Shown: positions 31,588 through 49,373, counted from the stretch's first letter. The stretch is DNA of 64,000 bases from Candidatus Bathyarchaeota archaeon (GCA_963769425.1 CAVYLP010000001.1:64001-128000), one strand, 5' to 3'. Numbers and translations are program-made. The notes: generated by a model from the sequence alone, not told the origin.

Positions 31588-31905
31588 TCATCGACTGAAA
31601 TCTGACCTGACTTCAGTAACAGAAATATTTTTCACTTTACCAAAAAGAGACTTGTGACGTTCGATAACCAGACCCCTACGACTTAACTCCTTTTCAATGA
31701 GTGCAATGCCTCTATCACTCCAAAAATAACGACTATTCACAAAATCAACCAGATTACTCCTGCGAAGCGCCCTTCGAATGACCTCCCAATCTGGACGAAT
31801 CCGGCGAGACACATACAAGTTAATGATTTCATCCCTCCAGAAATCGAAGACGTTCCTATCACTCTGGTTGCCAAGCTCTTTTTCCACGTCCTTCGTTAAG
31901 GTCAT
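31588..31905 (-). CDS. Hypothetical protein
   Basis: 105-aa ORF with GAGG upstream; no recognised motif. Confidence 0.55.
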   Translation of the reverse strand: MTLTKDVEKELGNQSDRNVFDFWRDEIINLYVSRRIRPDWEVIRRALRRSNLVDFVNSRYFWSDRGIALIEKELSRRGLVIERHKSLFGKVKNISVTEVRSDFSR

Positions 31906-32096
31906 ACAATTTCCGCCTCATTAAGACGATTTTGAGAGAGCTATCGATGCTCTGGTTATCATTAGATGATCGCTGTTTTTAAAAAATGTCTTTTGTGTGA
32001 CCGTGTCATGAAGACAAGCTCCGGCTGGTCTGGTAGGTGTAAGCGCGAATTCTCAATAAGGAGGTAGAGTTGCCTGGATGAAGATATTCAGCAAAA

Positions 32097-32909: not shown

Positions 32910-33109
32910 GACATCCTCAATACTACTTGTCTACTCTAAAGTAGATAGCTTCCTAGCATCTATCTCCTTCCGTTTCACCTTATTCGTTCTCGAAAGACCC
33001 CCTCGTCTCAGAGTTGATATTAGGGTTATCCACTTTCAGCATCCCAATTACTTCATCCTTAATAAGACGCGCGCACACGCGGGGCCAAGTCTGGTTTCGC
33101 TAGTCGCAC

Positions 33110-33406
33110 TCAAGGCGTATGCTCACGTCGGTCCCTCTCCTCATCCCGCCTCAACTGCTCCCCCAACCACTCATCGCTGACGGTGTAGGCTTCATTTGAC
33201 CCCCAACGAATCAAAAAAGGGAACTTGTCACCCGACCTCCTCCAGTTCTCCATTGAGCGAGTGTCACCGGCGTGAAAGCTAACGTTGTCCGTCTCCTTCC
33301 CCTTCCTGAGATAAGAGTAGACGAGGGGGATGACTACGAGGCCCATGAACACGAATACCAATATTTCGATAGACGCGACAACATCATGCTGTGCCAGGGA
33401 CATCAA
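33110..33406 (-). CDS. Hypothetical single-TM protein
   Basis: One hydrophobic helix followed by a charged tail. Confidence 0.5.
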   Translation of the reverse strand: MMSLAQHDVVASIEILVFVFMGLVVIPLVYSYLRKGKETDNVSFHAGDTRSMENWRRSGDKFPFLIRWGSNEAYTVSDEWLGEQLRRDEERDRREHTP

Positions 33407-33487
33407 ACTCTCAGCATCATATACAACTTATCAATCCTATAAAACATAACATGATAATTCATGACCAATAAAAAATATGAGAAAGAA

Positions 33488-33916
33488 TCAACTCCTCTCC
33501 TCAACTCTATGAGTTGAGACGAGGTTCATGATACGCTGAACAAGAACAATATAGACGTCAAGACTCGGGCCCTTCTCCAGATACGAGTCCACCCCCGCCT
33601 TGAAAGCCCTCTCAACCATCTTTTCGTCATCCCGACAAGTGAACAAGATGAAGGGTGTGTCGCATCCCTCTCCCCTCAGCCTCTCGCAGAATTCGACTCC
33701 ATTCATCCTATACATCGTATAGTTGCTGACGATGCAGTCGAAAGTCTGGCCGTGAATTAGTTCAAGTGCCTTCTCAGCGGAGCCAGCGGTATTGAAGATG
33801 AAGGACGCATCAATTCTTCGAAGAGCCATCTCTGATAGCTCAAGGTGAGTATCATCGTCGTCAACCAATAGGACCCGCAGGTTGAGGGGATGTTGACTCA
33901 TTATGCATCCAGGCAA
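33488..33916 (-). CDS. Atypical stand-alone receiver
   Basis: LLVDDD, FDCIVSNYTM (Asn at the phospho-Asp position), ILFT, YLEK. Confidence 0.82.
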   Translation of the reverse strand: MPGCIMSQHPLNLRVLLVDDDDTHLELSEMALRRIDASFIFNTAGSAEKALELIHGQTFDCIVSNYTMYRMNGVEFCERLRGEGCDTPFILFTCRDDEKMVERAFKAGVDSYLEKGPSLDVYIVLVQRIMNLVSTHRVEERS

Positions 33917-33942
33917 GGAAGCGTGGAATATAATGTGTAATC

Positions 33943-34098
33943 TTACTTACTGAGTTGGTTGAAGGTGGTCTTGCATTTCATGCATCTTAGAATCGCCACC
34001 TTTTTGTCTTTGGGGTCTATTCCCGCTATTATCGACTTCTTAGCACCGCATACTGGGCAGTCGTCGCCCCATTTGACTTTGTGCTCACTGTCCGTCAT
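33943..34098 (-). CDS. Small zinc-ribbon protein (one frameshift)
   Basis: Not in ORF track. MTDSEHKVKWGDDCPVCGAKKSIIAGIDPK, then after removing one A: DKKVAILRCMKCKTTFNQLSK*. Confidence 0.55.
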   Translation of the reverse strand: MTDSEHKVKWGDDCPVCGAKKSIIAGIDPKDKKVAILRCMKCKTTFNQLSK

Positions 34099-34193
34099 GG
34101 TTCGGCACAGCCACATAAATGGCTATTTATATAGTTTTACTTAGATCTACTTATGATTTAACTAAAAATAATCGTAAGACCTAGCCAACAGGC

Positions 34194-34376
34194 TCAGAAT
34201 CGTACCATCGCCTTTTCTCCGGCAAGGGCCTTATACCACTTTTCGTTTATCTCGATAACCTTTCCCTCATCTACGTCAAAGAACTTGTTCTCAGTTTCGC
34301 ATTTCCACAGCTTGAATCCGTTTACCTCCATTTCCTTCAAGGGTGCGCTACAGCTCGGACAATAATGTGAAACCAT
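34194..34376 (-). CDS. Small zinc-ribbon-like protein
   Basis: CPSC...WKC, 60 aa. Confidence 0.55.
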   Translation of the reverse strand: MVSHYCPSCSAPLKEMEVNGFKLWKCETENKFFDVDEGKVIEINEKWYKALAGEKAMVRF

Positions 34377-34466
34377 GTGTTATCCAAGAAGTCGGGTCCT
34401 AAAGAACGTTCTTAGACTGTCCCGAATATTTTCGGCTAAAATAATACGGCTATAAGTGTAGTGAAG

Positions 34467-34966
34467 TCAGGCTTCGCCCTTCGCCGGTAACCTCACAACG
34501 AAAACAGTCCCAGCGCTAACCTCTGATTTGAGGTCGATTGAACCACCCATCGCCTCTACCGCCCTTCGGCAATGCGTCAACCCTAGCCCCATACCACCCG
34601 TCTTCGTGGTGTACAGCGGAGAGAAGATGCGATTCTTTGACTCCTCAGAAATCCCACCACCAGTATCAGTGACACTGATCACTATCTCTCACCCGCCTTC
34701 TCCGCCCTGATAGTGAGCCTACCCCCTGTAGGCATCGCCTCAACCGCGTTCTTAACGAGATTATCGATAACACGATGCATGATGTCCGGGTCGATAACCA
34801 CTGAATTTGAACCAACGCCAACCGATGTCTCAACAACGATGTTGGCTGGAATAGTCGACCCCTCTAAAACCCTCTTGAACAAGTCACCGAGACTAGTCAT
34901 GACTGGCTGAGGCACGATCTCCCGAGTGCTAGACCTCCAGTCAGCGATCATCTTCAGATACCTCAC
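34467..34966 (-). pseudogene. Histidine kinase HATPase remnant (5'-truncated, frameshifted)
   Basis: NLVKNAVEA, DTGGG and GMGLGL in two frames; no H-box or sensor domain. Confidence 0.8.
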
Positions 34967-34995
34967 AATTTTATAATGAAGCCACTTAATGTAAG

Positions 34996-35820
34996 TTGGT
35001 GAAGGTTTTGGACGCGCAGGAAAGACAGTCTGTTTGGCGAATACTCTTTATTTTTCTCGTGCTTGCATCAATGACATTAGTTAGCGTGTATATATTTGAC
35101 GAATTAGTAGCGCCCAAGATCTCCCCAAATTTAGTACTCGTGCAATCCCTAAGAGTCCTCATAGTGATAACGACGACGGGAATAGCAGTATTCGTCGTAA
35201 GGAGAACGAAGAGATTCATCGTGGATAGGACTCGAACAAATGTGGCGAACTTCTTCGAGTTCATCATGATTGTGCTAATCTTGTTGATGTCGATGTTTTC
35301 CCTATTGCACATCTTCAACGTCGACACTAACACTCTACTGATCAGTGGTGGCATCATCTCGATCACCCTGGGGTTGGTTGTGTCAACGTTCGTTGGTGAT
35401 ACCCTTGCGGGTATGCTTGTATTCCTGTTGAATCTATACCATGTAGGTGACACGGTTTTCGTAAACAGTATACCGTGCAGAGTCGAGGAAATGAGTGCCC
35501 TCGTGACTAGGTTCAGGAACGATACAGGTGGAATAGTATCAGTACCTAACACAGCAATTGCTCAGGGAAGTGTCATTGTCACCCGGTTCCCCGATAATAA
35601 AGGCGTCTTTGTGAGTAGGCTTCCTTACGCTAAAAATGATCGCATCTACACAACGTACATGAACACTGAGGGTGTAGTCGTAGATCTTGACTCGATGCAC
35701 ACGCGGATAAGACTTGACACGGGAATGGAGTTATCTTTTCTTAACAATAGCATCCTCTCAGGCACAATCGCTGTCGCTAAAATTGTTGGCGAAAAGAAAG
35801 AGGATAATAAGACTAGTTGA
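34996..35820 (+). CDS. MscS-family mechanosensitive channel
   Basis: Three TM helices, LAG..FL...YHVGD.V, VPN motif. Confidence 0.8.
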   Translation: MVKVLDAQERQSVWRILFIFLVLASMTLVSVYIFDELVAPKISPNLVLVQSLRVLIVITTTGIAVFVVRRTKRFIVDRTRTNVANFFEFIMIVLILLMSMFSLLHIFNVDTNTLLISGGIISITLGLVVSTFVGDTLAGMLVFLLNLYHVGDTVFVNSIPCRVEEMSALVTRFRNDTGGIVSVPNTAIAQGSVIVTRFPDNKGVFVSRLPYAKNDRIYTTYMNTEGVVVDLDSMHTRIRLDTGMELSFLNNSILSGTIAVAKIVGEKKEDNKTS

Positions 35821-35845
35821 GTAGGCACACGTGTTGACTAAGAGG

Positions 35846-35991
35846 TAATTTCACACGCGCGAGCCTGTTTAGAAAATCACCATCTAAGACGTCTCAACAC
35901 CCATCCCTTAACCGCATCAAGGATACTCACGAACACCACATCCACAAATCATACTCAACATTACTAAAGAGCGCGCGCGGGTGAAAAATTA
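35846..35991. repeat. ~145-bp segment bounded by imperfect inverted repeats
   Basis: TAATTTCACACGCGCGAGC (35846-35864) versus the reverse complement of 35971-35991, TAATTTTTCACCCGCGCGCGC. Confidence 0.5.
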
Positions 35992-36440
35992 GACATGCAG
36001 AGCCTTGAATGGTTAATATTGAGCAATCTTCGATGAAGATTCATCCGTCTTATTTGATGCTTTATCGAACTTTGTGTGGCACTTCTCGCAGTTCGCCATT
36101 GGAAAGGGTCCCTCGAGGGTCTCGAAAACGTTTCCGCAGTTGGGGCATTTGACTTTTATTTTGTTCATTCGTCCACCACTGAGATTCCCTCATTCTACTA
36201 ATTAAAGTATTTATTGCCTTAGTAGCAGGTAAATTGGCGTAAATCACCCCGAATTCTCGAGGAAAGAAGACGCCCGGGATGTTTAGTGGGTCTTCTGGAA
36301 CTTTATAGAGGAAGCGGGGGATTAAGCTGAGGACAGTTCCTATAAAGTTGATTCGCGTCTTTTTTATTGATAAGAATTCAAAACAGGAGAATTCAGGTTA
36401 GAAATACGTGAAAGAAAAAAACTGATAAAAAAGGTTACAA

Positions 36441-37532
36441 CTACTTTATTGCGTATTTTTTAACTACGTCCCAGTCTACCTCGAAGCCGAGCCCCGGCTT
36501 GTTCGGTGCGCTGAGGTATCCTTTCTCAGGGCGGTAGGCCGGGTCTATGAAGTAGGACTCAAGGGGTACGGCGTTTATCTCGACCCACTCGCTGCGGTTG
36601 TTGCTGAGGCTGAGGTGGACGGATGCTGGGATGCCGGGTCCGAAGAAGAAGCTATGAGTTGCGAGGTCGAGGTTCCACGCCTCCGCGAGTGCGAAGATCT
36701 TCCTGCACGCCGTGATGCCGCCAGTCATGATGACGTCAGGCTGGACAAGGTCGTACGGGTGCTTCTCGACGATGTTCTTGAAGCCGTAGTGGGTGTACTC
36801 GTTCTCCCCGCCGGCGATTGGGATGTCGGTCTTCGTCCTGAGCCACGCGAGGCTGTCGTAGTCGTCGACTGGCCAGATGGGCTCCTCAAGCCACGTGAGG
36901 TTGTACCGCTCAAGCTGGCGGGCCGCCTTCAGGGCCTGCCCGGGTGTCCACGCCCCGTTGACGTCGAGCATCACCTCTATGTCGTCGCCCACCGCGTCGC
37001 GGACCGCCCTCGTGCAGGCGACGCCATCGTCCTTGCCCTGATGAATCTTAATCCCCTTGTAACCCTCCTCGACCCAGCGTTGGCTTACTTTGGCGACTTC
37101 CTCGGGCTTCTTGTACTCCATGAGGCTCGCGTAGGCCTTTACCTTGGGCTTACAGAGCCCACCTATCATCTCGTAGACGGGGAGTTTCCTCGCCTTGCCT
37201 ATGATGTCCCAGAGGGCTATCTCGACGCTGCTCAGCGATTGAATTGATATCCCCTTGACGCCGTGACCGAAGCTCACGTGGTAGACCTTGTTCCATAGAC
37301 GCTCCACCTGCATCGGGTCCTCCCCGACGAGCAGGGGCTTGAGCTGCTGCTCGATGTAGCCACCCACCGCGCCGTAGGTGTAGGGGATCGCCTCCCCGTA
37401 GCCCTTTATTCCCTCATCGGTCGTGACCTCGACGAGTATGTGCACGCTCCTCCTCTTCGGGTACGCGGAGAGGGGCTCCGTCTCCCTGAGGGGTATCCAC
37501 ATCGGGTAGGTCTTAATGTCAGTTATCTTCGT
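36441..37532 (-). CDS. Mandelate racemase/muconate lactonizing enzyme family protein
   Basis: GIKGYGE, EIALWDIIGK, KIH, MLDVN, WLEEP, GENE, QPD. The frame extends to ACG-KITDIKTYP at 37532. Confidence 0.93.
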   Translation of the reverse strand, partial: TKITDIKTYPMWIPLRETEPLSAYPKRRSVHILVEVTTDEGIKGYGEAIPYTYGAVGGYIEQQLKPLLVGEDPMQVERLWNKVYHVSFGHGVKGISIQSLSSVEIALWDIIGKARKLPVYEMIGGLCKPKVKAYASLMEYKKPEEVAKVSQRWVEEGYKGIKIHQGKDDGVACTRAVRDAVGDDIEVMLDVNGAWTPGQALKAARQLERYNLTWLEEPIWPVDDYDSLAWLRTKTDIPIAGGENEYTHYGFKNIVEKHPYDLVQPDVIMTGGITACRKIFALAEAWNLDLATHSFFFGPGIPASVHLSLSNNRSEWVEINAVPLESYFIDPAYRPEKGYLSAPNKPGLGFEVDWDVVKKYAIK

Positions 37533-37737
37533 CTCCTATGCCTCCAGAAGCTGTCCTAGTCTATGGTTCTTGGGCGGGAAAAGACTTTAGCCCCAAACCC
37601 TCCTCACTTCTTCCTTACAATCTTCCTCCCACCGCTCTCTCCACAAACAAACATAAACAAATAGACAGACATTAAATAAAATTCGAGGTAAGGAGATATG
37701 TTAAATTCAATAATGGGTATTAGTTTCGACGATTAAC

Positions 37738-39111
37738 TTGGCACAAGAAGAGCTCAATCCAAAAAAACATAATTCTGAAGAGTGCGTTAATCCTCAGTGT
37801 GATATATGTAAATATAAAAAACCATTTGATTTTCCAAGAGAAATCATTGAAGCATATAAAAATGGTCAATTAATCATTTTCGCGGGAGCGGGAATTAGTA
37901 CAGAACGAAGAGAAATTTTTCCAGTCAGTTTTTCAAATAAAATTAAAATAAAACTTGGAATACCCAAAGAGGAAAAAATAAAATTTTCAACATTAATGAC
38001 TAAATATTGTAATTTAACTGGATCTAAAAAAGAATTATTCAATGATATTAAACAACGGATCGATTATGTGACCTCATTTCCAGAATTATTGTTTAGAGCT
38101 ACAGAATTTCATCGAGAGCTATCAGTAATTCCCCATTTAGACGAAGTTTTTACAACAAATTGGGATGATTTTTTTGAAAAAGAATGTGGTTCAACACCAA
38201 TCGTTACAGGACAAGACTTTGCACTATTCCAAGACATTTCCGGAAGAAAAATTTTCAAAATTCATGGTTCAATCAGCAATTACAGCTCAATAATCGCTAC
38301 AGAGGAGGATTATCGTAAGTGCTATAGACAAATGCAAAAAGGCATTATTGGAGCAGTTCTTAAAAATTTACTTGTTACAAAAACAATAGTATTTGTTGGC
38401 TATTCATTAGGCGATGAAGATTTTCAAAAAATATACAACTTACTAAAAAAAGATACAAATGGTATTATGCCCTCATCTTACATAGTAACACTTGACGAAA
38501 ATGCGGAAACAAAAATACGATTGTTAAAAATGAACACGCTCCCAATAAACACAGATTCATCATATTTTATTCATGAATTCAAGAAAAAATTAGTCGAAGA
38601 AAAATTGATGCTACCAGAAACTAATTTTGCGGAAATAAATGAAAAATTAGAAAAAGTAATTACTGAACACCATAAATTATCCTTATTAGATCTTAATAAA
38701 TATCCAGATTCAATATACTCACTTGCTTATCAAGATGGTTTAATGCATGCATTTGAACGAATTTTATTAAAAATGAATACTGGAGAATATTCTTGCATGA
38801 CCCATTTATCAAATATGATAACTGATTATGATATAATTATTAAAGATAAGTTACATCAAAAAAATTATTGGGATGTAGCTTATTTTAGGGGTTATCAATA
38901 TGGGTTGGTATACCTTTTTACTACAAAAGATAGAGAGTCAATTCCTTTATACTACTTATTTGGAGAAAATGATGTTTTAACTTTTGAAGATTTTTTCAAG
39001 TTTCAAAAGAAGGCGTCTAAACAGCATAAGACAGCCCACCAAAAAGCAGTAAGTTTAATAAAAAAAATTAAGCCAAAAGAAACAGTTATGCATCACCGTC
39101 CTTTCTTATAA
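37738..39111 (+). CDS. SIR2-domain (SIR2_2-like) protein, probable defence NADase
   Basis: IFAGAGIS, FTTNWD, KIHGS, VFVGYSLGD; very AT-rich gene. Confidence 0.88.
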   Translation: MAQEELNPKKHNSEECVNPQCDICKYKKPFDFPREIIEAYKNGQLIIFAGAGISTERREIFPVSFSNKIKIKLGIPKEEKIKFSTLMTKYCNLTGSKKELFNDIKQRIDYVTSFPELLFRATEFHRELSVIPHLDEVFTTNWDDFFEKECGSTPIVTGQDFALFQDISGRKIFKIHGSISNYSSIIATEEDYRKCYRQMQKGIIGAVLKNLLVTKTIVFVGYSLGDEDFQKIYNLLKKDTNGIMPSSYIVTLDENAETKIRLLKMNTLPINTDSSYFIHEFKKKLVEEKLMLPETNFAEINEKLEKVITEHHKLSLLDLNKYPDSIYSLAYQDGLMHAFERILLKMNTGEYSCMTHLSNMITDYDIIIKDKLHQKNYWDVAYFRGYQYGLVYLFTTKDRESIPLYYLFGENDVLTFEDFFKFQKKASKQHKTAHQKAVSLIKKIKPKETVMHHRPFL

Positions 39112-39166
39112 AAGAAAAAATCTCAAATAATAATTACTTATCTCATTCATAATTATCTGTTAATCC

Positions 39167-39394
39167 TCATCTTACTAACGTGTGCTCAACATAGTAACTT
39201 ATCTTTCGTGATCTTATTGATCTTCTTTCTTTCATTAAGTAAAATTTTACTCGTCCGTCTAGTTTTCCCCAGCGGTATACGACTCTCGGGCTTGATTTCG
39301 AACCTTTTGGTCCAACTCTCAGAGTCGATGACTCTTTGATACTCTGCATTATTGCATAATTAATCAATGATTTAATTTGAGACTCCAAAGCCAT
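39167..39394 (-). CDS. Possible small basic protein
   Basis: MALESQIKSL... 75 aa, convergent with the SIR2 gene; the longer listed ORF runs through a repeat. Confidence 0.35.
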   Translation of the reverse strand: MALESQIKSLINYAIMQSIKESSTLRVGPKGSKSSPRVVYRWGKLDGRVKFYLMKERRSIRSRKISYYVEHTLVR

Positions 39395-39657
39395 CCAGCA
39401 AATAATATGCATATTTCGATCCCAATTTACAGCCCTGTTAAAAACAACGTGATAAGAGCATTTACTAGACTTTAGCCCTAAACCCAAACCACTCATTCTC
39501 CTCTACACTCTCTCTTACTCTCTCTAAGAAAAACAGACACACACAAACAAGCGTCACTTTTTCAGATTACGACAATGACAAAAACTAAATCTCTTCGCAC
39601 ACATGAGCTTAGACTATCCTAAAGATAACTTATAAAATAATTTGCGTAACTATAACC

Positions 39658-41548
39658 ATGAGTCATTCAAAAAGCGAAGAGGAAGTTTTACGCGCAAGCG
39701 GTGCCGCGAACAGCGAGATCCCCGAGAAATTCACACCGAAGACCGATAGCTTCGACTACGTCCGCCGCGAGGAGATGATCCCGATGCGCGACGGCGTAAA
39801 GCTCAAGACCATAATCCTCGTGCCGAAGGATGCACGGGACGCGCCGATCATTATTACACGTACGCCCTACAACGCCTCGGAACGCACGCTCCGATTCAAC
39901 AGCCCAAACCTCTCCTCAGTCGTGCCGCAGATGAACGACACTACGTCCGCGGCTCGATACATCATCGTGTACCAGGACGTGCGCGGGAAATACGGCTCCG
40001 ACGGCGACTACGTGATGACCAAACCGCTCGAGGGGCCCCTGAACGCGACCGGCACCGACCACGCGACCGATAGCTACGACACAATCGACTGGCTGGTGAA
40101 GCACGTGCCAGAGTCGAACGGCCGCGTGGCCGCGATGGGCGGCTCCTACGAGGGCTACACGACGCTGATGTGCACGGTGAACCCGCACCCGGCGTTGAAG
40201 GCCGTGGTGGCGTTCGCGGCGATGGTGGACGGCTGGATGGGCGACGACTGGTTCCACAGGGGCGCGTTCCGCCAAGACGCATCGCTGTCGTACACCTACG
40301 AACAGGAGGCGACGCGCAAGAACGAGGCAAAATGGTGGTCCGGGACCTACGACACCTACGACGCCTTCCTGCGCGCCGGTAACGCGGGCACGATGGCCGC
40401 CTCGCGCGGCATGGAGGGCCTCGGGTTCTGGCAGAAACTCGCGGAGCACACGGCTTACGACTCCTTCTGGCAGCAGCAGGCCGTGGACAAGCTGCTCGCC
40501 GAACGCCCGCTCGCGGTGCCTATGCTTATCGTCGGCGGGCTCTTCGACCAGGAGGACATCTACGGCTCTCCCGCGCTCTACAAGGCGCTAGCGCCGAAGG
40601 ATCCCGACGGAAAGTTCGTGCACCTCGTGCTTGGGCCTTGGAACCACGGGCAGGGGAGGCGCGATGCGCGCAGTCTCGGCTCCCTACAGTTCGAGGGCGA
40701 CACCGCTGGTTGGTTCCGGCGCAACGGTGATGCAGCCGTTCCTGGACCACTACCTGAGGGACGCCCCGAAGCCGGAAACACCGCGCGTGCTCGCTTACGA
40801 GACCGGCGCGAATATCTGGCACCGCTATGACGATTGGCCGCGCGCTTGCGTAAACGGTTGCGCAGCACGCTCGCGCAATCTCTACGTTCAGGCGGAGGGG
40901 AGGCTCGGCTTTGAGGCGCCGCCCGCCGCAGAGGAAGCCTTCGATGAGTACGTATCGGATCCCGCGAAGCCTGTGCCTTACCGGCAGCGGCCGACTGTAC
41001 CGACCTACGCGGCGGAGTCCACCTGGGGCGAGTGGCTGGTGGATGACCAGCGCCACACCGCCTCACGCACTGATGTGTTGGTCTGGTCCACGGAGCCACT
41101 AAAGGAACCCATGCGCGTCGCGGGCCAACCAGTCGCGAGGCTATTTGCCTCGACGAGCGGCAGCGATTCGGACTGGGTCGTGAAGATCATCGACGTCTGG
41201 CCGGACGAAGTACCGGAGAACCCGAAGCTCGGCGGCTACCAGCAGATGCTTTCGGCCGACATCTTCCGCGGTCGGTACCGCGAGGACCTCGCGGTCGCGA
41301 AGCCACTAGCATCCGGCAAGGTGCTGGACTATCGCATTCCCTTGCCGCAGATTAGCCACAGCTTCCTGCCCGGCCACAGGATCATGGTGCAGGTGCAGTC
41401 GAGCTGGTTCCCGCTCTACGACCGAAACCCGCAGACCTTCGTGCCGAACATCATGTTCGCGCCACTGGAGAGCTACCGGAAGGCGACGCAGCGCGTGTGG
41501 CGGACTGCGGAGTTTCCGACGGCCATCGAGTTTCCCGTAATCACATAG
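39658..41548 (+). CDS. CocE/NonD hydrolase, alpha-amino acid ester hydrolase-like (frameshift near 40725)
   Basis: IPMRDGVKL, RTPY, QDVRG, GSYEG nucleophile, GPWNHG, SSWFPLYDRNPQ; very GC-rich. Confidence 0.92.
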
Positions 41549-41776
41549 AGGCGGTATTCGCGCGTTTCCCCACTCGCGGAAATTTCGGCACTTGACCAGT
41601 TGTTACGAACTCATTAGTGAGGATACTCCGCGCGTGTGTCTGTCTGTTTGTCTGTCTTAGAGAGTAGGAGAGAATGTAGGGAAGAATAGTGTTAGGTAGT
41701 CGTGAATATTAGGGGTGATGGGTTTGGGAAAAAAGACTATGGCCCCAAACTTGCACAAAAATGTGTGAGCACGAAG

Positions 41777-42889
41777 CTAACGTTTAACAAGAAACACTTT
41801 ACCATCTGAGGTTGTTCCCGCTATTATGAAGCCTCCATCGCTTGTACCACTTATGGAGCGACACATGCTCAAGTAGTCCCAGAGACGCTCAACACCGAGC
41901 AGGTTCCCCGAAGAATCGATCTCAAATACTAGACCAATCAAAATAGACTCAGTCGAATTATGGCCGACGACGACTAAATTACCATTAGGCATGGCTAAAC
42001 TTGAATCAAAGCTCGATACGTCCCAGTAAGTTCTATTCCACATCATATTTCCCAATTTGTCAGTCTTGAACACATACCCCGTCTCGGGATACGAAATAGC
42101 TTGTGCCGTCAGAAAGTAGCCACCATCGGAAGCAACTTGAATTGAGTTAGCATGATTTAAGATACTCTTACCGTATGTGTTATTCCAGATTACATTCCCC
42201 TTGTTGTCAGTCTTCACAAGAACCACTAAGCCATTTGGGCCAACGCTGACGCCATTATTATCTAGGACGGTGCCTCCGACGATGACATAGCCACCATAAG
42301 AGGCCCTCTGGAGGTCCTTATCCCCGTTATCCACTCCGTATAACCACATCGGCGAACCTCCCAGCTTCTTGTTCCACTGTACCTCGCCCGCCGAGTCCAA
42401 CTTTATGAGGTAAATTGACCCACCTTTGGATTTAGACACTATGCATCCGCCGTCTATGGTCTCGATGATCGAGTTTGCCATGCTGTCAATGTCTTGTTCT
42501 TTATTACTCCATTCAGTGTATCCGGAGGAGTTAGTCTTAATGATGTAGAGTCCGTGGTTGGAGCCACCTAGAAGGTATCCCCCATCTTGCGTCGCTCGCA
42601 CGGTGAAGCCTTGTCCCGGAAAGAACCTTACCCATTCTTTGCCTCCGGTGGAATTCGTTTTGATGAGGAAGGTCCGATCGTTATTGGTATTCGAGTTTCT
42701 CCCAATTATTATGTATCCGCCATCCAGTGTCTGCTGAATAGAGTAGGGGTAGCTCCAATCTCCGAGTGAGTATGTTGTATTCCATTGATTTCGCTTGAAG
42801 GTTGGCGCGAGGTAGGATAAATTCAGAAACACTGCTGTGGCGAAGAGGATCGAGATAATGACTACCCAACTGGTCCGGGGTCTAAACAT
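41777..42889 (-). CDS. Secreted beta-propeller-like repeat protein
   Basis: N-terminal TM; repeats of the form SIQQT.DGGY.I.G...L.KT.S.G...W. Confidence 0.8.
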   Translation of the reverse strand: MFRPRTSWVVIISILFATAVFLNLSYLAPTFKRNQWNTTYSLGDWSYPYSIQQTLDGGYIIIGRNSNTNNDRTFLIKTNSTGGKEWVRFFPGQGFTVRATQDGGYLLGGSNHGLYIIKTNSSGYTEWSNKEQDIDSMANSIIETIDGGCIVSKSKGGSIYLIKLDSAGEVQWNKKLGGSPMWLYGVDNGDKDLQRASYGGYVIVGGTVLDNNGVSVGPNGLVVLVKTDNKGNVIWNNTYGKSILNHANSIQVASDGGYFLTAQAISYPETGYVFKTDKLGNMMWNRTYWDVSSFDSSLAMPNGNLVVVGHNSTESILIGLVFEIDSSGNLLGVERLWDYLSMCRSISGTSDGGFIIAGTTSDGKVFLVKR

Positions 42890-42973
42890 TTCTATTATTT
42901 AAACAGTAAATCTCAGAATATGATTTTTCATCACGAGCGAGCATAGAAAGGTTTGGGTTTGGGGGAAAAGACT

Positions 42974-43594
42974 TTAGAGCGGCTCTCCCTCGACGCTCAT
43001 GACTATTCGCTCGATGGAGAGTTCCTTTCCCGCGTCCCTGATGGCGTGGGCAACGAGGCCGGCGAGACCCGAGCAGCAGGGGACCTCCATGTGGACGATC
43101 TTGACATGCTTTATGTCGTTGTATCGGAATATCTCGGTGAGCTTCTCCAAGTAGGCGGGGACGTCGTCGAACTTGGGGCACCCTACTAGGACGACTTGGT
43201 TCTTCAGGAGTGTGTCCTGCCAGTCGGGGCTTGCGACGGGGACGCAGTCGGACATTATGAGGAGATCCGCGCCCTTGAGGAAGGGGGCGTGTGGATTAAC
43301 GAGGTTGAGCTGAACGGGCCAGTTCCTGAGCCGTGACTTCCTCCGCGGCTTCTGGGACTCCTTATGCTCCTCGGTGGCCTCCTCGTCGAAGGCCGGGGCC
43401 TCTCGCTCGATGACCCTGATAGCGTCCCGCGGACAGGTGCCGAGGCAGGCACCGAGCCCGTCACAGTAGACCTCGCTTACGAGCCTCGCCTTACCATCTA
43501 CAATCTTGAGCGCACCCTCGGCGCACTTGGGGATGCACTCACCGCAGCCGTTGCACCTCTCCTCGTCTATCTGGACTATCGCCCGCTTGACCAT
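42974..43594 (-). CDS. 4Fe-4S ferredoxin-domain protein
   Basis: CNGCGECIPKC, CDGLGACLGTCP, NWPVQL, GCPKFD, MEVPCC. Confidence 0.88.
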   Translation of the reverse strand: MVKRAIVQIDEERCNGCGECIPKCAEGALKIVDGKARLVSEVYCDGLGACLGTCPRDAIRVIEREAPAFDEEATEEHKESQKPRRKSRLRNWPVQLNLVNPHAPFLKGADLLIMSDCVPVASPDWQDTLLKNQVVLVGCPKFDDVPAYLEKLTEIFRYNDIKHVKIVHMEVPCCSGLAGLVAHAIRDAGKELSIERIVMSVEGEPL

Positions 43595-43635
43595 CGAACG
43601 ATGGTGAAGAACAGGTGGATATAGACTCTTCCTGA

Positions 43636-45354
43636 TTAGTACCCGAGGGCGGTGGACCTCCGGAAGAGGTCGACGCCCGCCCTCAGGTTCTCGTCGCCTA
43701 TCAGGATGGCTGAGGGCCTCGCGAAGTAGCTGAGGCCTGGGCCCTCATCGACCACCTTAACGTTGTGGAGACGCTTGCGCAGGCCTTCCACGGGGATGGA
43801 TGGGATGCGTGAGTCGACGAGTGTATCGAGGCCGCTCGCGTCGATGGTCGGCGCCGAGACCGCTTCCTGTGGCCCCATCCCGAACTCAACCATGTTGAGG
43901 ACGACCTGCAGGTTCCGCTCGATTATCCGGCGGCTCCCCGGCGCGCCCTCGATTATGATAGGGGCACCGTCTTTCAGAATCATCAGGGGACCCATGTTCA
44001 TCACGGGCCTCTTCCACGGCGCGACGCTGTTAGGGTAACCCGGCGCGGGGACGAACCACCCCATGGCCGCTGTTAGGTAGAGGCCCGTGCCCTCGGGTAC
44101 GACCCCCGCCTGGAATCCGGGTGTGTGGGTGCAGGCGACCGCGTTCCCCTCGCCATCAACGACGTTGAAGTGGCTCGTCTCCCCCCCGGGTGGGCTCGGG
44201 GACGATGCACCTCTCGGCGTGGGCATCTTTCTGCCCTCGTGCCACCAAGGGTCGTGCATCGGGGCGCCGAGGTACCTAACCCAGGGCTCCGCCGAATCCC
44301 TCCGGAACCTAGTCATCTCCGAGATGAGCCCGTGGAGGTAGGTCGTGTAAGAATCTGAGAGCAGCCCAGTGAGGGGTACGTCTGCATGCTCCCAGTCCCC
44401 GAGCAGGCTGTACCTGTCGGCGAAGGCGTGGCGCGAAGCCTCCGCGAGGACGTGCATGTACTCGGAGGAGTTGTGCCCAAACCCTGCGAGGTCGAAGCCC
44501 TCCAGAATCTTCATCGTCTCCAGTATTGTGACGCCGCCGCTCGGGGTCGATGTGGTCGACACATCCAAGCCTCGGTAGCTGATCTTGATGGGCTGCCCGA
44601 CGGTGGGCTCGTACGCGGCGAGGTCCTCCGCGGTCATCACACCACCGGCGGCTGCGACCGCCTCCTCGACGGCCTTTGCCACCTCGCCAGCGTATATGGC
44701 GTCGCGCCCCTCCGCGCCAATCTTCTTCAGGAGCCTCGCTAGGTCAGGCTGTACTATCCGGGTCCCGGGCGCGGCGGGGAAGCCTCCTGGGAGCCAGATG
44801 TCGTCTATGGCTGGGCACCTCTGGCTCTCCCGAGCCAAGGTCATGTTGACGAGCGACTGGTCCCAACCAAGTGTGAAGCCCTCAGAGGCGAGCTTATGGG
44901 CGGGCTCGATAACCTCCGAGAGTGGGAGGGTGCCGAAGAGTTCGTGAGCCTTGAGGAAGCCGGCGCAGGTCGCGGGGATGGTAAGCGCTTTCCCCCCGAC
45001 GCTGTTCTCGTTCCCCTCGACCTCGAATATCTTTGTCCCCCCAGCGGCAGCGTCGCCGACGACCTTGAACATGTCAGGGGAGGCTCCCCTAGGTGCCCTC
45101 GTGTTGAAGTCGATGGAGACGACCTTCCCCTCCTCCGCCGAGTAGGCAACCATGAAGCCGAGGCCGCCGAGCCCCGCAAGGTATGGTTCGAGCACCGTGT
45201 TGCAGAAGCCCATGGCCACGCCGGCGTCGAAGGCGTTGCCACCGGCCTTCAGTATCTTGAGCCCGGCCTCGGCGGATGGAGGCGTGGATGCGGTCACCAT
45301 CCCGTTCTCGGCGGTGACCTCGTCTTTCATGAATCGTAGGGAGCCCATAGCCAA
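43636..45354 (-). CDS. ggt: Gamma-glutamyltransferase family protein
   Basis: LKAGGNAFDA, IDFNTRAP, ETSHFNVVD (Thr nucleophile), PWKRP, GAPG. Confidence 0.92.
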   Translation of the reverse strand: MAMGSLRFMKDEVTAENGMVTASTPPSAEAGLKILKAGGNAFDAGVAMGFCNTVLEPYLAGLGGLGFMVAYSAEEGKVVSIDFNTRAPRGASPDMFKVVGDAAAGGTKIFEVEGNENSVGGKALTIPATCAGFLKAHELFGTLPLSEVIEPAHKLASEGFTLGWDQSLVNMTLARESQRCPAIDDIWLPGGFPAAPGTRIVQPDLARLLKKIGAEGRDAIYAGEVAKAVEEAVAAAGGVMTAEDLAAYEPTVGQPIKISYRGLDVSTTSTPSGGVTILETMKILEGFDLAGFGHNSSEYMHVLAEASRHAFADRYSLLGDWEHADVPLTGLLSDSYTTYLHGLISEMTRFRRDSAEPWVRYLGAPMHDPWWHEGRKMPTPRGASSPSPPGGETSHFNVVDGEGNAVACTHTPGFQAGVVPEGTGLYLTAAMGWFVPAPGYPNSVAPWKRPVMNMGPLMILKDGAPIIIEGAPGSRRIIERNLQVVLNMVEFGMGPQEAVSAPTIDASGLDTLVDSRIPSIPVEGLRKRLHNVKVVDEGPGLSYFARPSAILIGDENLRAGVDLFRRSTALGY

Positions 45355-45482
45355 TCATCTTTGATGCTGCTCAGAGAGGGAAGAAACTTGCCCGCCCCTC
45401 GGTCACTTTCATGCGCCACCGCTCGCGCATGCTCGACTCCGTTTAAATAGGCAGGGGACACATTGGGCACCCCTGACCGCTC

Positions 45483-46091
45483 ATGGAGTCCCCCGAGCAC
45501 AAGCACCTGAAGAACGTCGCGGTCCTCTGGCTCTTGAATCGGGGCTGCTTTCTCGCCGACACCGAGGTGCCGCTGAGCCAAGTGGGACTCAGCCGCTACA
45601 CGGAGATGGATAACAAGACGGTGATCGACGCAGTGGGTGTGGGGCTCCGTTTCAACGCGAGGAACAGTAAAGGTGAGGCGTCGGATGACTTCGACCCAGC
45701 TTCCCTCATGGGGGCCGAGGCTGGGGAGTGTGTCCTCCGGGGTGTCGAGGTCAAGGTAAGCCGCAGCGACTTTCGAGCCGGCTTCGCCTGCAGTGGGTGC
45801 AACTACCACTACCTCCTCACACCCCTGCGCCTACTCGCCCCGTCCGAGGTACCACGTGGTGTTGGCCTCATCGAGTACAACAAGCACAAGTGGGGCTGCG
45901 AGCCCGACGAAGACCACCCCGAGCGCCCCTACAAGATCACCGGCCTACGCGTCCTCAAGCACCCGATGTACCGAGAGTTACCACGATTCCAAGTAGACGG
46001 CGTAATATCTCAGCTCGCCAAAAAGACAATACAACAGACACTCGAGAAAGCCCTCAAGTGTGTCATATGTCCAGTGTCGAAGCATAATTAA
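45483..46091 (+). CDS. PD-(D/E)xK nuclease-fold protein, MmcB-like
   Basis: H..LK, TEV, IDAVG, VEVKVSRSDF, YLLTP, EVP.GVGLI. Confidence 0.7.
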   Translation: MESPEHKHLKNVAVLWLLNRGCFLADTEVPLSQVGLSRYTEMDNKTVIDAVGVGLRFNARNSKGEASDDFDPASLMGAEAGECVLRGVEVKVSRSDFRAGFACSGCNYHYLLTPLRLLAPSEVPRGVGLIEYNKHKWGCEPDEDHPERPYKITGLRVLKHPMYRELPRFQVDGVISQLAKKTIQQTLEKALKCVICPVSKHN

Positions 46092-46208
46092 CCAGCCAGG
46101 GGAGCGGGGGAGTAGCTGCATTTTCCAAAGATACTGAAAGATAAAGATCAAAGAATGGCTCAAAAAAAAGAGGACAACGCGACTCTTACCCTCCTTTCAC
46201 AAGATGAG

Positions 46209-46406
46209 GCTAGAACTGATTCCTAGTGGCTGGTGTAAAAAATGATGTTTTTCCTTATTCCTACCAGCGAGGCATATACGCCCAGCCAGCTAGTGTGCTA
46301 TACCACCTTAGTAGGAATCTGATTCCTAGTGGTAGGTATCGAGGGTCATTGCGGAGCACTTTGTGATTCCACCCTACTAGGAATCCGGTTCCTAGTGGCA
46401 GGTACC
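46209..46406. repeat. Palindromic repeats (two 38-bp copies and one partial copy)
   Basis: 46303-46340 versus 46369-46406 match at 32/38; core ACTAGGAATC-N-GATTCCTAGT; partial copy at ~46209-46236. Confidence 0.75.
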
Positions 46407-46662
46407 CGTGCGGGGTTAGTTGCCAAGAGGAAGTACATTCATGAAAACTGAGAAACGACGATGAAAAGTGGTTGGAAACCTTCTCAGATCCGCCACTTCA
46501 TGATCTCCTCGTTCCATCAAACATGATTTGGAGTGCCTGATTGAGACCATGAGGCGAATCTCCTCAGTGACCTCCGCCGCGTCCTTAACACACCAACAAT
46601 CCTATTCTGATGGAGATTTAATCTGACTGGATAGGCGTGTTCGCTCCACGCGCTTGTACTGT

Positions 46663-48018
46663 TTAAAATTCCTCTACGGGGCGGAGCCACTTGCCGTAAC
46701 CAGGTTTACCGACGACTTGCCCGTCCTCGTAGATGACTGAGCCGCGAAGCATCGTCAACACAGGCGCCCCAACGCCCTCTATTCCCTCGTATGGGGTGAT
46801 CTTCTGGATCGTCTTCAGATCCTCGCCCCTGATCTTGAAGGGCTTCTCCATGTCCACGACGACGACATCTGCGTCAGCGCCGATATTCAGCGCCCCCTTC
46901 TTAGGGTAGACGCTGTCGATTATAGCGGGGTTGGTGCTGAAGACCTCGACCAGGCGCTCGAGCCCTATCCTGCCGTCGTTGACCGCGTTGAGCATCAGGG
47001 GGAGCGTGGTCTCGATTACGACGCCTCCGCTGGGGGCGTCGAAGATGTCCTTCCAACCCTTCTCCTTCTCCTCCTTCGTGTAGGGGGCGTGGTCGCTGGC
47101 GAGGACGTCGAGGACGCCGTCGTTGAGCGCCTCCCAGAGGCGGGCCTGATCGGCCTCCGTCCTGAGCGGCGGGTCGACCTTCGCGTATGGGCCCCTCTCC
47201 TTCATCGTCTCCTCGTTCATGAGGAGGTAGTTGGTGGAGGTCTCACCCGTCGCGTCGACGCCCCTCATCTGGGCCTCCTCTAAGACGTCTACGACCATCG
47301 CAGCGGTTACGTGGCAGACGTGCAGGTGCATCCCCGCCTCCTCAGCGAACATGAGGGCACGGCTCGCGGCCTCCGCCTCAGCAATCGGCGGACGGAACTC
47401 ACCGTGCGCCATAGGGTCGACACGTCCAAGCCTCTTAGCCTCGGCCGTTCCCCTGTCGACTATCACCTGGTTCTCCGCGTGGATGAGGCAGGGGAGACCC
47501 TCATCCGCGATTATCTCGAAGTTCTTCCGTAGCTGCCAGTCGTCCGCGGCTAGCTCCTTGAAGCGAGCTATCATGAAGCTCTTGTAGGCTACGGCGCCCG
47601 CCTTGGCTAGGCCGCGTAGCTCCTCCTCCGGAACCTCGCCGGCTCCCCCGACTAAGCCGAAGTCGACGAGGGACTTCTTGGAGACTATGGCCTTCTTCTC
47701 CTCGAAGGCCTTGACTGTGACTGTGGCTGGGATCGTGTTTGGCATATCCATGACGGTGGTTACGCCCCCGGCTGCCGCGGCGCGTGTGCCCGACTCGAAG
47801 TTCTCCCTCTCCGGGTTACCCGGATCCCTGAGGTGAACGTGCATGTCCACCATGCCGGGGAGAACGTACTTCCCGATGGCGTCTATTACCCTGTCCGCCT
47901 TCGGTTCACCTGACTTCATTATGCCGATGATCTTGCCCTCGTCTATGACTAGGCTCCCCTCCCAGAGGCCGGAGGGTAGGACGAGTGTGCCGTTCTTTAT
48001 GACCACGTCGACTGACAA
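46663..48018 (-). CDS. Cyclic amidohydrolase (dihydroorotase/allantoinase family)
   Basis: DMHVHLRDPG, AAAGGVTT, IHAE, KVDPPLR, ASDHAP. Confidence 0.92.
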   Translation of the reverse strand: MSVDVVIKNGTLVLPSGLWEGSLVIDEGKIIGIMKSGEPKADRVIDAIGKYVLPGMVDMHVHLRDPGNPERENFESGTRAAAAGGVTTVMDMPNTIPATVTVKAFEEKKAIVSKKSLVDFGLVGGAGEVPEEELRGLAKAGAVAYKSFMIARFKELAADDWQLRKNFEIIADEGLPCLIHAENQVIVDRGTAEAKRLGRVDPMAHGEFRPPIAEAEAASRALMFAEEAGMHLHVCHVTAAMVVDVLEEAQMRGVDATGETSTNYLLMNEETMKERGPYAKVDPPLRTEADQARLWEALNDGVLDVLASDHAPYTKEEKEKGWKDIFDAPSGGVVIETTLPLMLNAVNDGRIGLERLVEVFSTNPAIIDSVYPKKGALNIGADADVVVVDMEKPFKIRGEDLKTIQKITPYEGIEGVGAPVLTMLRGSVIYEDGQVVGKPGYGKWLRPVEEF

Positions 48019-48069
48019 TCTTTACACCTGCAATAAGGCGGTGCGGTGGGGCTGATAACCGTTACCCGG

Positions 48070-49206
48070 CTAGAAGACGACGTCCCAGGGCATCTGGTTG
48101 AGGACGACGGGGTCCCCCTTGGTGACGAGGACTATGTCCTCGACGTGGCTCCTCATTCCCAGCTTCGAGTCGATCCTGATGGGTTCGTATGTGAGGGTCA
48201 TCCCAGCCTTGAGGGGGAGGGCGTCGTTCTCGATTGAGCCGAAGTTGGTGGCGAATGGCATGGTGTAGTCGTGGACGTCGAGGCCGATCTGGTGTCCGCT
48301 GCGGGGTGTGGACTCGAATCCCATCTCCTCGTGTAGTGTGTTGGCGTAGCGGAGGACCTCGTTGCCCGAGACGCCCTCGCGGATGTGCTTTATGCCCTCC
48401 CTCTGAACCTTGACGACGCGGTCGAGGAAATCCTTCGCCTCGGCGTCGAGGGTGACGGGCCACGTGCGCCCCATGTCGCTGCAGTACCCGGACTCTACTC
48501 TGACGCCGACGTCGATGCTGAGGAGGTCGCGATGCTTCACGACACCGTATGGCCTCTTCGGCCCCCTGCAGAAGCTGAGGCTGGAGTCGAAGCTGTGGTC
48601 GAGGGCGCCGAGCTCTATGAGGCGGGCGTCGAGGCGCTTCTTCAGCTTCCAAGTGTCTGCCCCGGGGACGGCACCCTGGATGAGCTCGTAGACGGCGTTC
48701 TCGGTGATGTTGATGGCTCGCCTGATCTCGCTGACCTCGTACTCGTCCTTGATGCTGCGCATCGTGAAGATGTGGTCGCTGAGGTCGCGCTTGGGGTCGA
48801 TCTTTATGTGGAGGGTGTCGGCGAGGGCGTAGGCGAACTGGCTACTCATGGTGCTGAGGTCGAAGCTGACGCGGTCGGGGTTGTAGCCGGTTAGGGCGAC
48901 CTGTGTTCCCCTCATGTGATGGCCCTTCTCCTGCCTCACGGCGACGACCTTCGTGTACTTGCCGCTCTCCTCGGCGGCCTTCGCGCCCCAGTGGGGGCAG
49001 ACGAGGGTGACGTCACCGTTCACACCGAGCACTAGGCTCTGGTGCTCGTCGCCGATGCCGTCGGGACAGAGATAGACAAAGTTACCCGGGTTCTGATTCA
49101 CCACCTCGTTTAGGAGGACTATGGTCTCGAATCCCCTGCGCTCTACTTCCTTGAGGAGTTCCTTTCTCCTCCTCGTTAGCGACTCCTCCTGGTTCAAGTG
49201 GTTCAC
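48070..49206 (-). CDS. M24-family metallopeptidase
   Basis: IDVG, YCSDMGRT, GHQIGLDVHD, TYEP, VEDIV. Confidence 0.88.
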   Translation of the reverse strand: MNHLNQEESLTRRRKELLKEVERRGFETIVLLNEVVNQNPGNFVYLCPDGIGDEHQSLVLGVNGDVTLVCPHWGAKAAEESGKYTKVVAVRQEKGHHMRGTQVALTGYNPDRVSFDLSTMSSQFAYALADTLHIKIDPKRDLSDHIFTMRSIKDEYEVSEIRRAINITENAVYELIQGAVPGADTWKLKKRLDARLIELGALDHSFDSSLSFCRGPKRPYGVVKHRDLLSIDVGVRVESGYCSDMGRTWPVTLDAEAKDFLDRVVKVQREGIKHIREGVSGNEVLRYANTLHEEMGFESTPRSGHQIGLDVHDYTMPFATNFGSIENDALPLKAGMTLTYEPIRIDSKLGMRSHVEDIVLVTKGDPVVLNQMPWDVVF

Positions 49207-49373
49207 TTAGGTGTGTAGAGTCGCGGGGGGTGGATATGGGTTTTCCTAGGCGGTGGTGGCTTATGCCGTGCTACTAGGCATAACGAGAAATTTATTTTTT
49301 TCCGCATGGTTGTCGAGGTCGTTTTGGGGGTTCCCCGCAAGTTTATTATCCGGTGGGGTCGGCTACCGTCTCT

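Follow-up and report, generated by a model that had tools for sequence, protein, structure and literature searches.

Three cargo cassettes stacked at the 3' end of a ferredoxin-like gene in a Bathyarchaeota genome are probably members of a casposon-like element family moved in trans by Cas1

What has set three genes of very different base composition in a row between a ferredoxin-like gene and an enolase-superfamily gene, each divided from the next by a copy of the same short site? The row lies in a 64-kilobase (kb) stretch of a metagenome-assembled genome of Candidatus Bathyarchaeota, G000 (completeness 91%, contamination 4.9%); this stretch, G000:C1:64001-128000, is called the window, and positions are counted within it unless a contig or locus is named. 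The original prediction, made from the sequence of the window, recognized four palindromic sites (A, B, C and D) separating a SIR2 gene, a CocE hydrolase gene and a beta-propeller gene, and explained them by sequential capture through a trans-acting, XerA-like recombinase. The analysis presented here leads to a different enzyme: window positions 37576-42977 are probably a tandem array of three non-autonomous cassettes that belong to a casposon-like family of elements of Bathyarchaeia and are moved in trans by Cas1. The feature is real and mobile, and more ordinary in kind than first proposed.

All four sites are present in the window with the sequences attributed to them and with their cores in the same orientation. 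A 20-mer consisting of the core and the right arm, with up to three mismatches allowed, matches the window exactly four times, at A, B, C and D; in 100 dinucleotide shuffles of the window both the mean and the maximum count were 0, and a reversed-pattern control for the site motif gave no match. The cores of A and D form a perfect direct repeat (15 of 15 positions), and the stop codon of the ferredoxin-like gene does lie inside D. The content of guanine plus cytosine (GC) changes abruptly at every one of the four sites: the host flanks have about 0.56-0.64, the SIR2 segment 0.26-0.35, that of CocE 0.58-0.67 and that of the beta-propeller gene 0.43-0.50, which bears out the contrast that had been noticed. 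The absence of a recombinase from the array was also borne out by Pfam among the scanned open reading frames (ORFs) of positions 37569-42986.

The orthologous locus was compared in six congeners (G066, G061, G062, G057, G064 and G065) whose enolase-family orthologues are 87-98% identical to that of the window (98% in G066). The empty locus that had been predicted exists in three of the six: in G066, G062 and G061 the genes for gamma-glutamyltranspeptidase (GGT), ferredoxin and the enolase-family protein are contiguous in this order, and the 83-85 nt from the ferredoxin gene to the enolase-family gene contain exactly one core, reading ...GGGCGAGAAAAGACTTTAGAGTGGCTCACC in G066. Window sequence to the left of A, joined to window sequence to the right of D, gives the empty junction of G066. 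In the empty host site the core is present and the right arm is absent, with AGTGGCTCA in place of CCCCAAACC. Since the empty loci have one core and the window has two, the 5.4 kb between the two is an insertion into native host sequence with duplication: the insert sits in native sequence overlapping the ferredoxin stop codon and is flanked by a duplicate of that sequence. The spot has been used repeatedly. Inserts that differ from that of the window occupy it in G057 (about 375 nt, starting with the core followed by CCTAAAACCAAAC) and in G064 (4.9 kb, with degenerate outer ends, one internal core and a long left end), as had also been predicted, and the locus of G065 is rearranged or more heavily loaded: the 16.7 kb upstream of the enolase-family gene contain neither the ferredoxin nor the GGT gene, and a site was not detected. 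Fixed synteny of the three cargo genes among relatives, with no empty site, was thus not seen; empty and alternative loci exist instead. By-eye comparison found a homologous stretch beside the ferredoxin gene in the inserts of G057 (L099:2230-2560) and G064 (L053:8700-8990), which could derive from an older cassette or from a host gene that the "empty" genomes have lost.

The anatomy of the array indicates that what had been called a palindromic site is better read as a right end-tip (GGTTTGGGG), a duplicated target of 13-15 bp and a left end-tip (CCCCAAACC). Site C is a complete junction of this kind, in which GGGTTTGGG is followed by AAAAAAGACTATGG and then by CCCCAAAC; site B retains AGACTTTAG plus CCCTAAACCCAAACC, and the right end-tip of cassette 1 is absent on its left. 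The 31-bp palindrome that had been composed by joining arms of D and A corresponds, with two mismatches, to an actual single site at G000:C4:214300-214330, and it recurs in congeners. Two features of casposons are recognizable here: terminal inverted tips (CCCCAAACC / GGTTTGGGG) flank the cassettes, and a target of about 14-15 bp is duplicated at a preferred sequence, its exact length being ambiguous between 13 and 15 bp across a run of G. Inverted ends of about 90 nt, G-poor and CT-rich, extend to the right of A and B and to the left of C; they were not mentioned in the original prediction and terminate in (C)AGACAGACAAAC-like motifs. An inverted repeat of 59 nt (39495-39553 with 41629-41687, 71% complementary) surrounds the CocE cassette, and positions 37650-37671 are 82% complementary to 41637-41658.

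Alignment of Logan contigs from four metagenome runs to window positions 36800-43600 revealed polymorphism at the level of one cassette. A contig of run X3 (1853 nt, depth 18.3, shorter side 255 nt) joins 41718 to 42954 with 10 nt common to both sides of the joint, and a contig of run X2 has the joint at 41726 and 42961. Both omit 1235 nt, the exact spacing of C and D, i.e., the beta-propeller cassette, and in the populations sampled in X3 and X2 a single junction lies between the right end of the CocE cassette and the ferredoxin gene. Because these joints remove exactly the C-to-D unit, the beta-propeller cassette is a discrete unit, either gained in the window genome or lost in the X3 and X2 populations. 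The SIR2 segment (37708-39296) and the beta-propeller segment had zero depth in the four runs, which was counted as evidence neither way, and no contig bridging A to B was seen in these runs.

Junctions of the same type occur at about eight other places in G000 and in five congeners. At five loci of G000 there are 11 half-sites that match the core at 11 or more of 13 positions, and looser copies lie elsewhere; GC steps occur at most of its sites, and the junction at C4:214300 is complete (31 bp), with a long end to either side. A strict 19-mer found a match in 8 of 70 other genomes of the family, six of the eight being in the same genus, and degenerate patterns gave 52 and 36 matches in the five congeners versus 0 in reversed-pattern controls. 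One array in a congener (G066:C44) has at least 10 junctions in 37 kb. The consensus of the target in the family is GATAAGACTWTRG. Among 47 arms collected, 16 have no more than 8% G over positions 13-100 of the strand read from the outside inward; the G-poor arms have in common the motifs ...CTACCTAAC...CTCTCTTAC...ACAGACAGACAAAC and finish in ACAGACAGACAAAC-like motifs, and their strand asymmetry could reflect a binding array, a promoter or a single-strand substrate. The motif does not occur genome-wide irrespective of accessory boundaries, as a terminator or regulator site might; it is restricted to a small number of accessory loci, where GC steps and remnants of Cas1 also occur. One of these, G000:C4:207408-217176 (L010:7408-17176), is a second mosaic island with blocks of 0.22-0.27 GC next to blocks of 0.55-0.59. 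Its contents are a split Cas1, a weak SduA_C-like protein, two AT-rich genes without assignment and an Oxidored_FMN cassette, the 110-nt left end of which is nearly identical to one in the G066:C44 array. A truncated gene for an IS110-family (DEDD) transposase begins 32 nt past a core-plus-tip half-site (G000:C2:121972-122340; L013:8994-9505), another IS110 gene lies inside the G066:C44 array, and IS110 elements may target the junctions. Host sequence to the left of the core resembles the right end-tip in G000 and G066, and a "leader" was considered on this ground; the idea was dropped, there being no such resemblance in G062 and at most array ends.

The sole enzyme found travelling with the sites is a solo Cas1, in Pfam scans that covered eight Cas1-bearing loci and, in part, the ORFs of the other site-bearing loci. 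A split copy lies within the island at G000:C4:207.4-217.2 kb. In G065 (C20) there is an intact unit of 3375 nt, a Cas1 of about 342 aa (383-aa ORF) lying between two full sites whose 13-nt cores are identical; as in casposons, a Cas1-family integrase is carried here on an autonomous element outside CRISPR-Cas, and the window array itself is without Cas1. According to a tblastn-type search, Cas1 is multi-copy and often decayed, with nine pieces at six places in G000, 12 matches in G065 and 10 in G062. Three of the six Cas1 loci of G000 are within 2 kb of a strict site, or five of six if the looser sites at C1:178713 and C1:336010 are counted, and 3.6% of random G000 positions are within 3 kb of a site. 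In the five congeners, 11 of 26 Cas1 loci are within 3 kb of a site versus 0.83 expected (binomial 2e-10, for loci that are not independent). The proximity of Cas1 loci to sites and the intact Cas1 unit thus establish a genomic linkage of the junction family to Cas1. The protein scores 165 bits on TIGR00287 (cut-off 71.7), and an alignment of 12 members shows no variation at the H and D of the catalytic motif and hardly any at the two acidic positions; by these sequence features it is a genuine Cas1 and looks functional. The family is represented in metagenomes by 1824 proteins at E <=1e-10, forming about 120 clusters at 56% identity or above. G000 has no CRISPR array by a k-mer spacing scan and no Cas2, and no Cas2 or Cas4 family was found by Pfam in the eight Cas1 loci. 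Nor do these eight loci contain a match to PF00136 or PF03175, the families of family B DNA polymerase (PolB), and G000 itself has two PolB loci, both remote from every site. For lack of PolB, the system is filed as casposon-like in its working and not under any described casposon family.

In other Bathyarchaeia, with Cas1 proteins 54-57% identical, the same anatomy is built from other sequences: the inverted (CCCAAA)n tips are kept, and the flanking 13-nt direct repeat is specific to the lineage. Identical 13-nt flanks were found at L125, L127 and L124 (Table 1), and also at L051. With the tips constant and the repeat varying by lineage together with Cas1, the three evolve together, as expected of an integrase and its substrates. 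The CCCAAA hexamer ends at L127:2804-2840 and L127:8030-8083 are telomere-like, with unequal copy number at the two ends. Three conserved protein families, Z (about 300 aa), Y (about 160-180 aa) and X (about 160 aa), accompany Cas1 in the larger units, with 5-9 ORFs each across 13 loci compared. Pfam, PHROGs, NCBIfam and PADLOC gave no usable assignment for any of them. As a lead only, the predicted structure of Z in the Atlas resembles the DUF3987/helicase part of primase-helicases (TM 0.69-0.75); that of Y is uninformative (pLDDT 0.49).

In structure, each cassette has a left tip CCCCAAACC(CAAACC) and a right tip (GGTTTG)GGTTTGGGG, some with G-poor extensions of about 90 nt, and one target copy of 13-15 bp separates neighbouring cassettes, or a cassette and the host. 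The target used here is GGGAAAAGACTTTAG, which belongs to the host and lies where its ferredoxin-like gene ends. In the mechanism that we infer, with Cas1 as the catalyst, a staggered-cut chemistry and an order of insertion, solo Cas1 from autonomous relatives elsewhere would act in trans, binding the tips and joining the 3' ends of the cassette to both sides and strands of the target, which would be duplicated by repair. Because the target would be regenerated beside an end-tip at each junction, further cassettes could land next to the first and pile up head to tail. The 31-bp "palindrome" would be the right tip, the target and the left tip, and a circular excision product would carry the same sequence. 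A casposon can take its own copy of the target along when it moves, according to passages of PMC10359463; carriage of this kind may explain why core variants seem to travel with cassettes and why the internal cores do not match the outer pair, and it reconciles the attP-like palindrome with the action of Cas1. In an alternative route, the three-cassette block would have arrived pre-assembled as a composite and created a fresh A/D pair.

Several observations weigh against this explanation. The internal cores are not faithful copies, C differing from the A/D core at four positions and B being truncated, so that simple serial duplication of the target in situ is insufficient without mutation, transfer of the element's own core or a pre-assembled composite. 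Neither Cas1 nor a remnant of it is found in the window array, and action in trans is therefore assumed; the Cas1 copies of G000 are all broken, and given this the array may now be immobile. In a phmmer search of the PDB, the Cas1 is nearer to a CRISPR Cas1 (4n06, 83.5 bits) than to a solved casposase (6opm, 50.0 bits). PolB is absent, though carried by every described casposon. Fifteen of the 26 Cas1 loci of the congeners, in a strict site search, and one to three of the six in G000 have no recognized site within 3 kb. Deletion across the 10-nt direct repeats TGGGTTTGGG would explain the joints of runs X3 and X2 equally well, and X, Y and Z of the autonomous units could be the real catalysts.

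This last point is the substance of one rival explanation, according to which the cassettes are as described and are moved by X, Y or Z or by an IS110-type recombinase, Cas1 being a passenger or having another role. The regular company that X, Y and Z keep with Cas1 speaks for it, as does the IS110 fragment that abuts a site at G000:C2:121994, together with the IS110 gene of the G066 array. However, the intact 3.4-kb unit of G065 has Cas1 and none of X, Y and Z; the helicase-like fold predicted for Z, a lead only, suggests replication rather than integration; and Cas1 is the sole protein present with known DNA-joining chemistry. IS110 was rejected as the general enzyme, just one of its three copies in G000 being near a site. 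A different enzyme is on this evidence unlikely. For the cassettes to be no mobile units at all, the motif would have to be a terminator or regulator of gene ends, or the locus a chimera of assembly or binning; the sites are indeed intergenic and the genome is metagenome-assembled, with the completeness and contamination given above. This is scarcely credible given that orthologous loci are empty or otherwise filled, that in an independent contig the CocE cassette ends at the site against the ferredoxin gene, that the motif is limited to few accessory loci with GC steps and Cas1 remnants, and that reversed-pattern controls gave 0 matches.

The remaining rival retains the enzyme of the original prediction: a tyrosine recombinase, either XerA-like and of the host or on an unseen element, would exchange strands within a 31-bp two-arm site, and the cassettes would be site-bearing circles. 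It accords with the full junction, a 31-bp two-arm near-palindrome, with the core variants TTTAG, TATGG, TATAG and GGCTATGG that recur across arrays and genomes as if cassette-borne, and with internal cores unlike the outer pair, and G000 does encode one tyrosine recombinase. However, that protein, the sole PF00589 match of the genome, is encoded about 65 kb from the nearest site and scores 63 bits versus a XerA/integron-integrase cut-off of 220. No other PF00589 match was found in the eight Cas1-bearing loci or among the scanned ORFs of other site-bearing loci, and Pfam scans of site-bearing loci found neither a tyrosine nor a serine recombinase. The arms of tyrosine recombinase sites are usually 6-8 nt apart and those of the junction are 12-13 nt apart; the empty host site has the core and no right arm; and the inverted ends of about 90 nt on some cassettes are needless for an att site. 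Carriage of its own target is also described for a casposon in passages of PMC10359463, and so does not discriminate. A XerA-like or integron-type recombinase is unlikely on these grounds. What stands of the capture model is a stack of independently acquired cassettes at one site with the enzyme outside the array, the evidence being the empty loci, the alternative inserts and the precise absence of one cassette in other populations. The statement that the site resembles neither attC nor a tRNA attachment site holds as far as tRNA is concerned, a tRNA scan of 30000-50000 having found none, and no Rfam family was found in 37300-43200 at E up to 1 (just a chance snoRNA-like match of 26 bits); the accompanying idea that no known system resembles it does not hold, since the casposon signature fits.

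The features of the array, and those of related units elsewhere, are listed in Table 1. The SIR2 cargo resembles defence-associated sirtuins (PADLOC PDC-S25 8e-21, ThsA 5e-19, also LmuA). The CocE/S15 hydrolase is encoded as two overlapping ORFs (39658-40830 and 40631-41548), split by one extra base at 40725/6 relative to the contigs of all four metagenome runs; this frameshift is either specific to the genome or an assembly error. The protein is 90-94% identical to unnamed metagenome proteins, 83-84% identical to proteins of Steroidobacteraceae and other gammaproteobacteria, and 83% identical to 4PF1, a solved S15/CocE/NonD peptidase whose label gives an archaeal single-cell genome as its source; by sequence comparison the cassette is a candidate for recent transfer from bacteria to archaea. 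The beta-propeller-like protein has no Pfam family and a weak BamB-like NCBIfam match, and no close orthologue in 70 genomes of the family (the best is 36-40% identical). An ORF on the minus strand over site B (39167-39496) has no match in Pfam, NCBIfam or PADLOC and is probably not a gene.

Table 1. Coordinates of the array, its host flanks and related units; window positions unless a contig or locus is named.
Feature	Position	Strand	Evidence or remark
Host flank, enolase-superfamily (MR_MLE) gene	36441..37502	-	Pfam PF13378 2e-61, PF02746; 87-98% orthologues in six congeners
Left target copy, core of A, GGGAAAAGACTTTAG	37576..37590	+	Same as 42963-42977; single copy in empty loci G066, G061, G062
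Cassette 1 left end, tip CCCCAAACC and G-poor CT-rich extension ending ...ATAGACAGACA	37591..37672	+	
Cargo 1, SIR2-like gene, GC about 0.27-0.35, defence-type	37738..39111	+	Pfam SIR2_2 5e-22
Truncated core of B (AGACTTTAG)	39467..39475	+	
Cassette 2 left end, CCCTAAACCCAAACC and G-poor extension	39476..39553	+	Inverted repeat with 41629-41687
Cargo 2, CocE/NonD S15 hydrolase, GC about 0.65	39658..41548	+	Pfam Peptidase_S15, PepX_C
Cassette 2 right end, G-rich mirror of long end, tip GGGTTTGGG at 41720-41728	41629..41728	+	Inverted repeat
Core of C, AAAAAAGACTATGG	41729..41742	+	Four positions different from A/D core
Cassette 3 left end-tip (CCCCAAAC), without long extension	41743..41750	+	
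Cargo 3, beta-propeller-like protein, 370 aa, GC 0.43-0.50	41777..42889	-	
Cassette 3 right end-tip, GGTTTGGGTTTGGGGG	42950..42965	+	Overlap with 15-bp repeat of up to 3 G
Right target copy, core of D, GGGAAAAGACTTTAG	42963..42977	+	Overlaps ferredoxin stop codon (TTA at 42974-42976, minus-strand reading)
Host flank, 4Fe-4S ferredoxin-like gene	42974..43594	-	Pfam
GGT gene, beyond ferredoxin-like gene	43636-45354		Pfam
Example G-poor arms of the window	37600-37672; 39491-39553; 41629-41719		
Junctions of the C4 island, G000	C4:207408; C4:214300; C4:217159		
Other junctions, G000	C1:178713; C1:335084-336112; C2:121972; C3:53347; C6:905146		
Distant unit L125, 5.3 kb			Tips CCCCAAACCCAAACCCAAAC; direct repeat ATTAAATTTTAAC on both sides
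Distant unit L127, 5.3 kb			Tips of 4 and 7 tandem CCCAAA units; direct repeat ATTTAATTTTTAT
Distant locus L124, several junctions			Tips CCCAAACCCAAACCC-type, as in the other two; direct repeat GTAAAGTTTTATC
Examples of X/Y/Z	L124:8495-10525; L091:4807-6986; L125:4933-6065; L127:3943-5901; L010:9731-10078		

If Cas1 is the catalyst, Cas1-driven transposition extends beyond the large polymerase-carrying casposons, and a small lineage without PolB has spawned many non-autonomous single-gene cassettes and built accessory and defence islands in an archaeal class that is abundant in sediment and peat. There would then be a concrete route for gene gain across domains, of which the CocE/S15 peptidase cassette is an example, and a natural system for the choice and regeneration of targets by Cas1, with a bearing on the origin of CRISPR arrays. 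A stronger claim, that a CRISPR-type Cas1 outside the known casposase clade and without a polymerase drives a platform of gene capture in Bathyarchaeia, stacking kilobase-sized cargo of whatever origin, near-bacterial genes like that of the CocE/S15 peptidase included, at a regenerated target of 13-15 bp, is put forward tentatively, its chances being somewhat less than even; such a platform would be analogous to integrons in function and would stand, as a living intermediate, between casposon transposition and the growth of CRISPR arrays, with the junction corresponding to the repeat and the cassette to the spacer. For annotation, the junctions mark the boundaries of cassettes and explain abrupt GC mosaics in genomes of Bathyarchaeia. 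In the open literature, taken without supplements and including passages of PMC6452270, no description was found of casposons that are from Bathyarchaeia, without PolB, non-autonomous or cargo-only, and relevant elements may be among the casposons listed in the supplements of PMC4779613; the system is apparently an undescribed variant of Cas1-driven transposition.

The system can be compared with several known ones. Tn7-like islands at attachment sites and IS492-type circle-formers, with which casposons are compared by the authors of PMC4779613 and PMC10359463 in the passages concerned, similarly stack at one site and restore a single target by precise excision. Their enzymes are unrelated to Cas1, and the sites have neither TnsABCD-like genes nor a transposase of Piv or DEDD type linked to them. 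The 28-bp dif site on which Xer recombinases act has 11-bp arms and a 6-bp spacer; unlike dif/pdif modules, the junctions described here have arms of 9-16 nt, 12-13 nt apart, and an empty site without the right arm. A CRISPR array consists of regular repeats of 24-47 bp and short spacers beside cas genes. CRISPR arrays with Cas1-Cas2 are similar to the present system in the type of Cas1 and in repeated insertion at a regenerated site, giving a unit, a junction of about 31 bp and another unit. They differ in that the inserts here are 1.2-8 kb long and carry genes and ends of their own, in that there is no Cas2, no effector gene and no regular array, and in that duplication at the outer ends is limited to the central 13-15 bp. 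In integrons, the attC site is a folded single-strand structure, R''-L''...L'-R', with a GTTRRRY core; by inspection the junction does not look like a folded site of this type, its arms (GTTTGGG...CCCAAAC) being in the opposite order to R''...R'. Unlike integrons, the array also has no IntI, has cassettes with inverted ends and a duplicated target, and has one of its three genes on the opposite strand. It nevertheless resembles integrons, including the archaeal ones described in passages of PMC9668308, in that single-gene cassettes from mixed sources line up at one site, the enzyme need not be encoded in the array, and cargo crosses domains.

The closest comparison is with casposons of families 2 and 4 in Methanosarcina and Aciduliprofundum boonei (MetMaz-C1, AciBoo-C1). 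Passages of PMC4779613 and PMC9939771 describe, from casposons of Methanosarcina and A. boonei, terminal inverted repeats, sequence-conserved target duplications of 14-15 bp, tandem arrays with one common duplication and solo terminal inverted repeats; according to passages of PMC10359463, excision in vivo is precise and leaves the target once, the intermediate is proposed to be circular, and the element can bring its own copy of the target to a new site. The present family differs from casposons in having PolB in none of eight loci, autonomous units of 3.4-5.3 kb rather than about 8-20 kb, a Cas1 that scores higher against CRISPR Cas1 than against the solved casposase, tips of CCCAAA units, many decayed copies per genome, and a majority of units that are Cas1-less cassettes with a single cargo gene and widely varying GC. 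As far as those passages describe casposons, the two have in common terminal inverted repeats, a duplicated, sequence-specific target at the 3' end of a gene (14-15 bp in casposons, 13-15 bp here), tandem elements separated by the common duplication alone, solo remnants of ends, a solo Cas1 without CRISPR or Cas2 as the sole candidate integrase, and excision that leaves one copy of the target.

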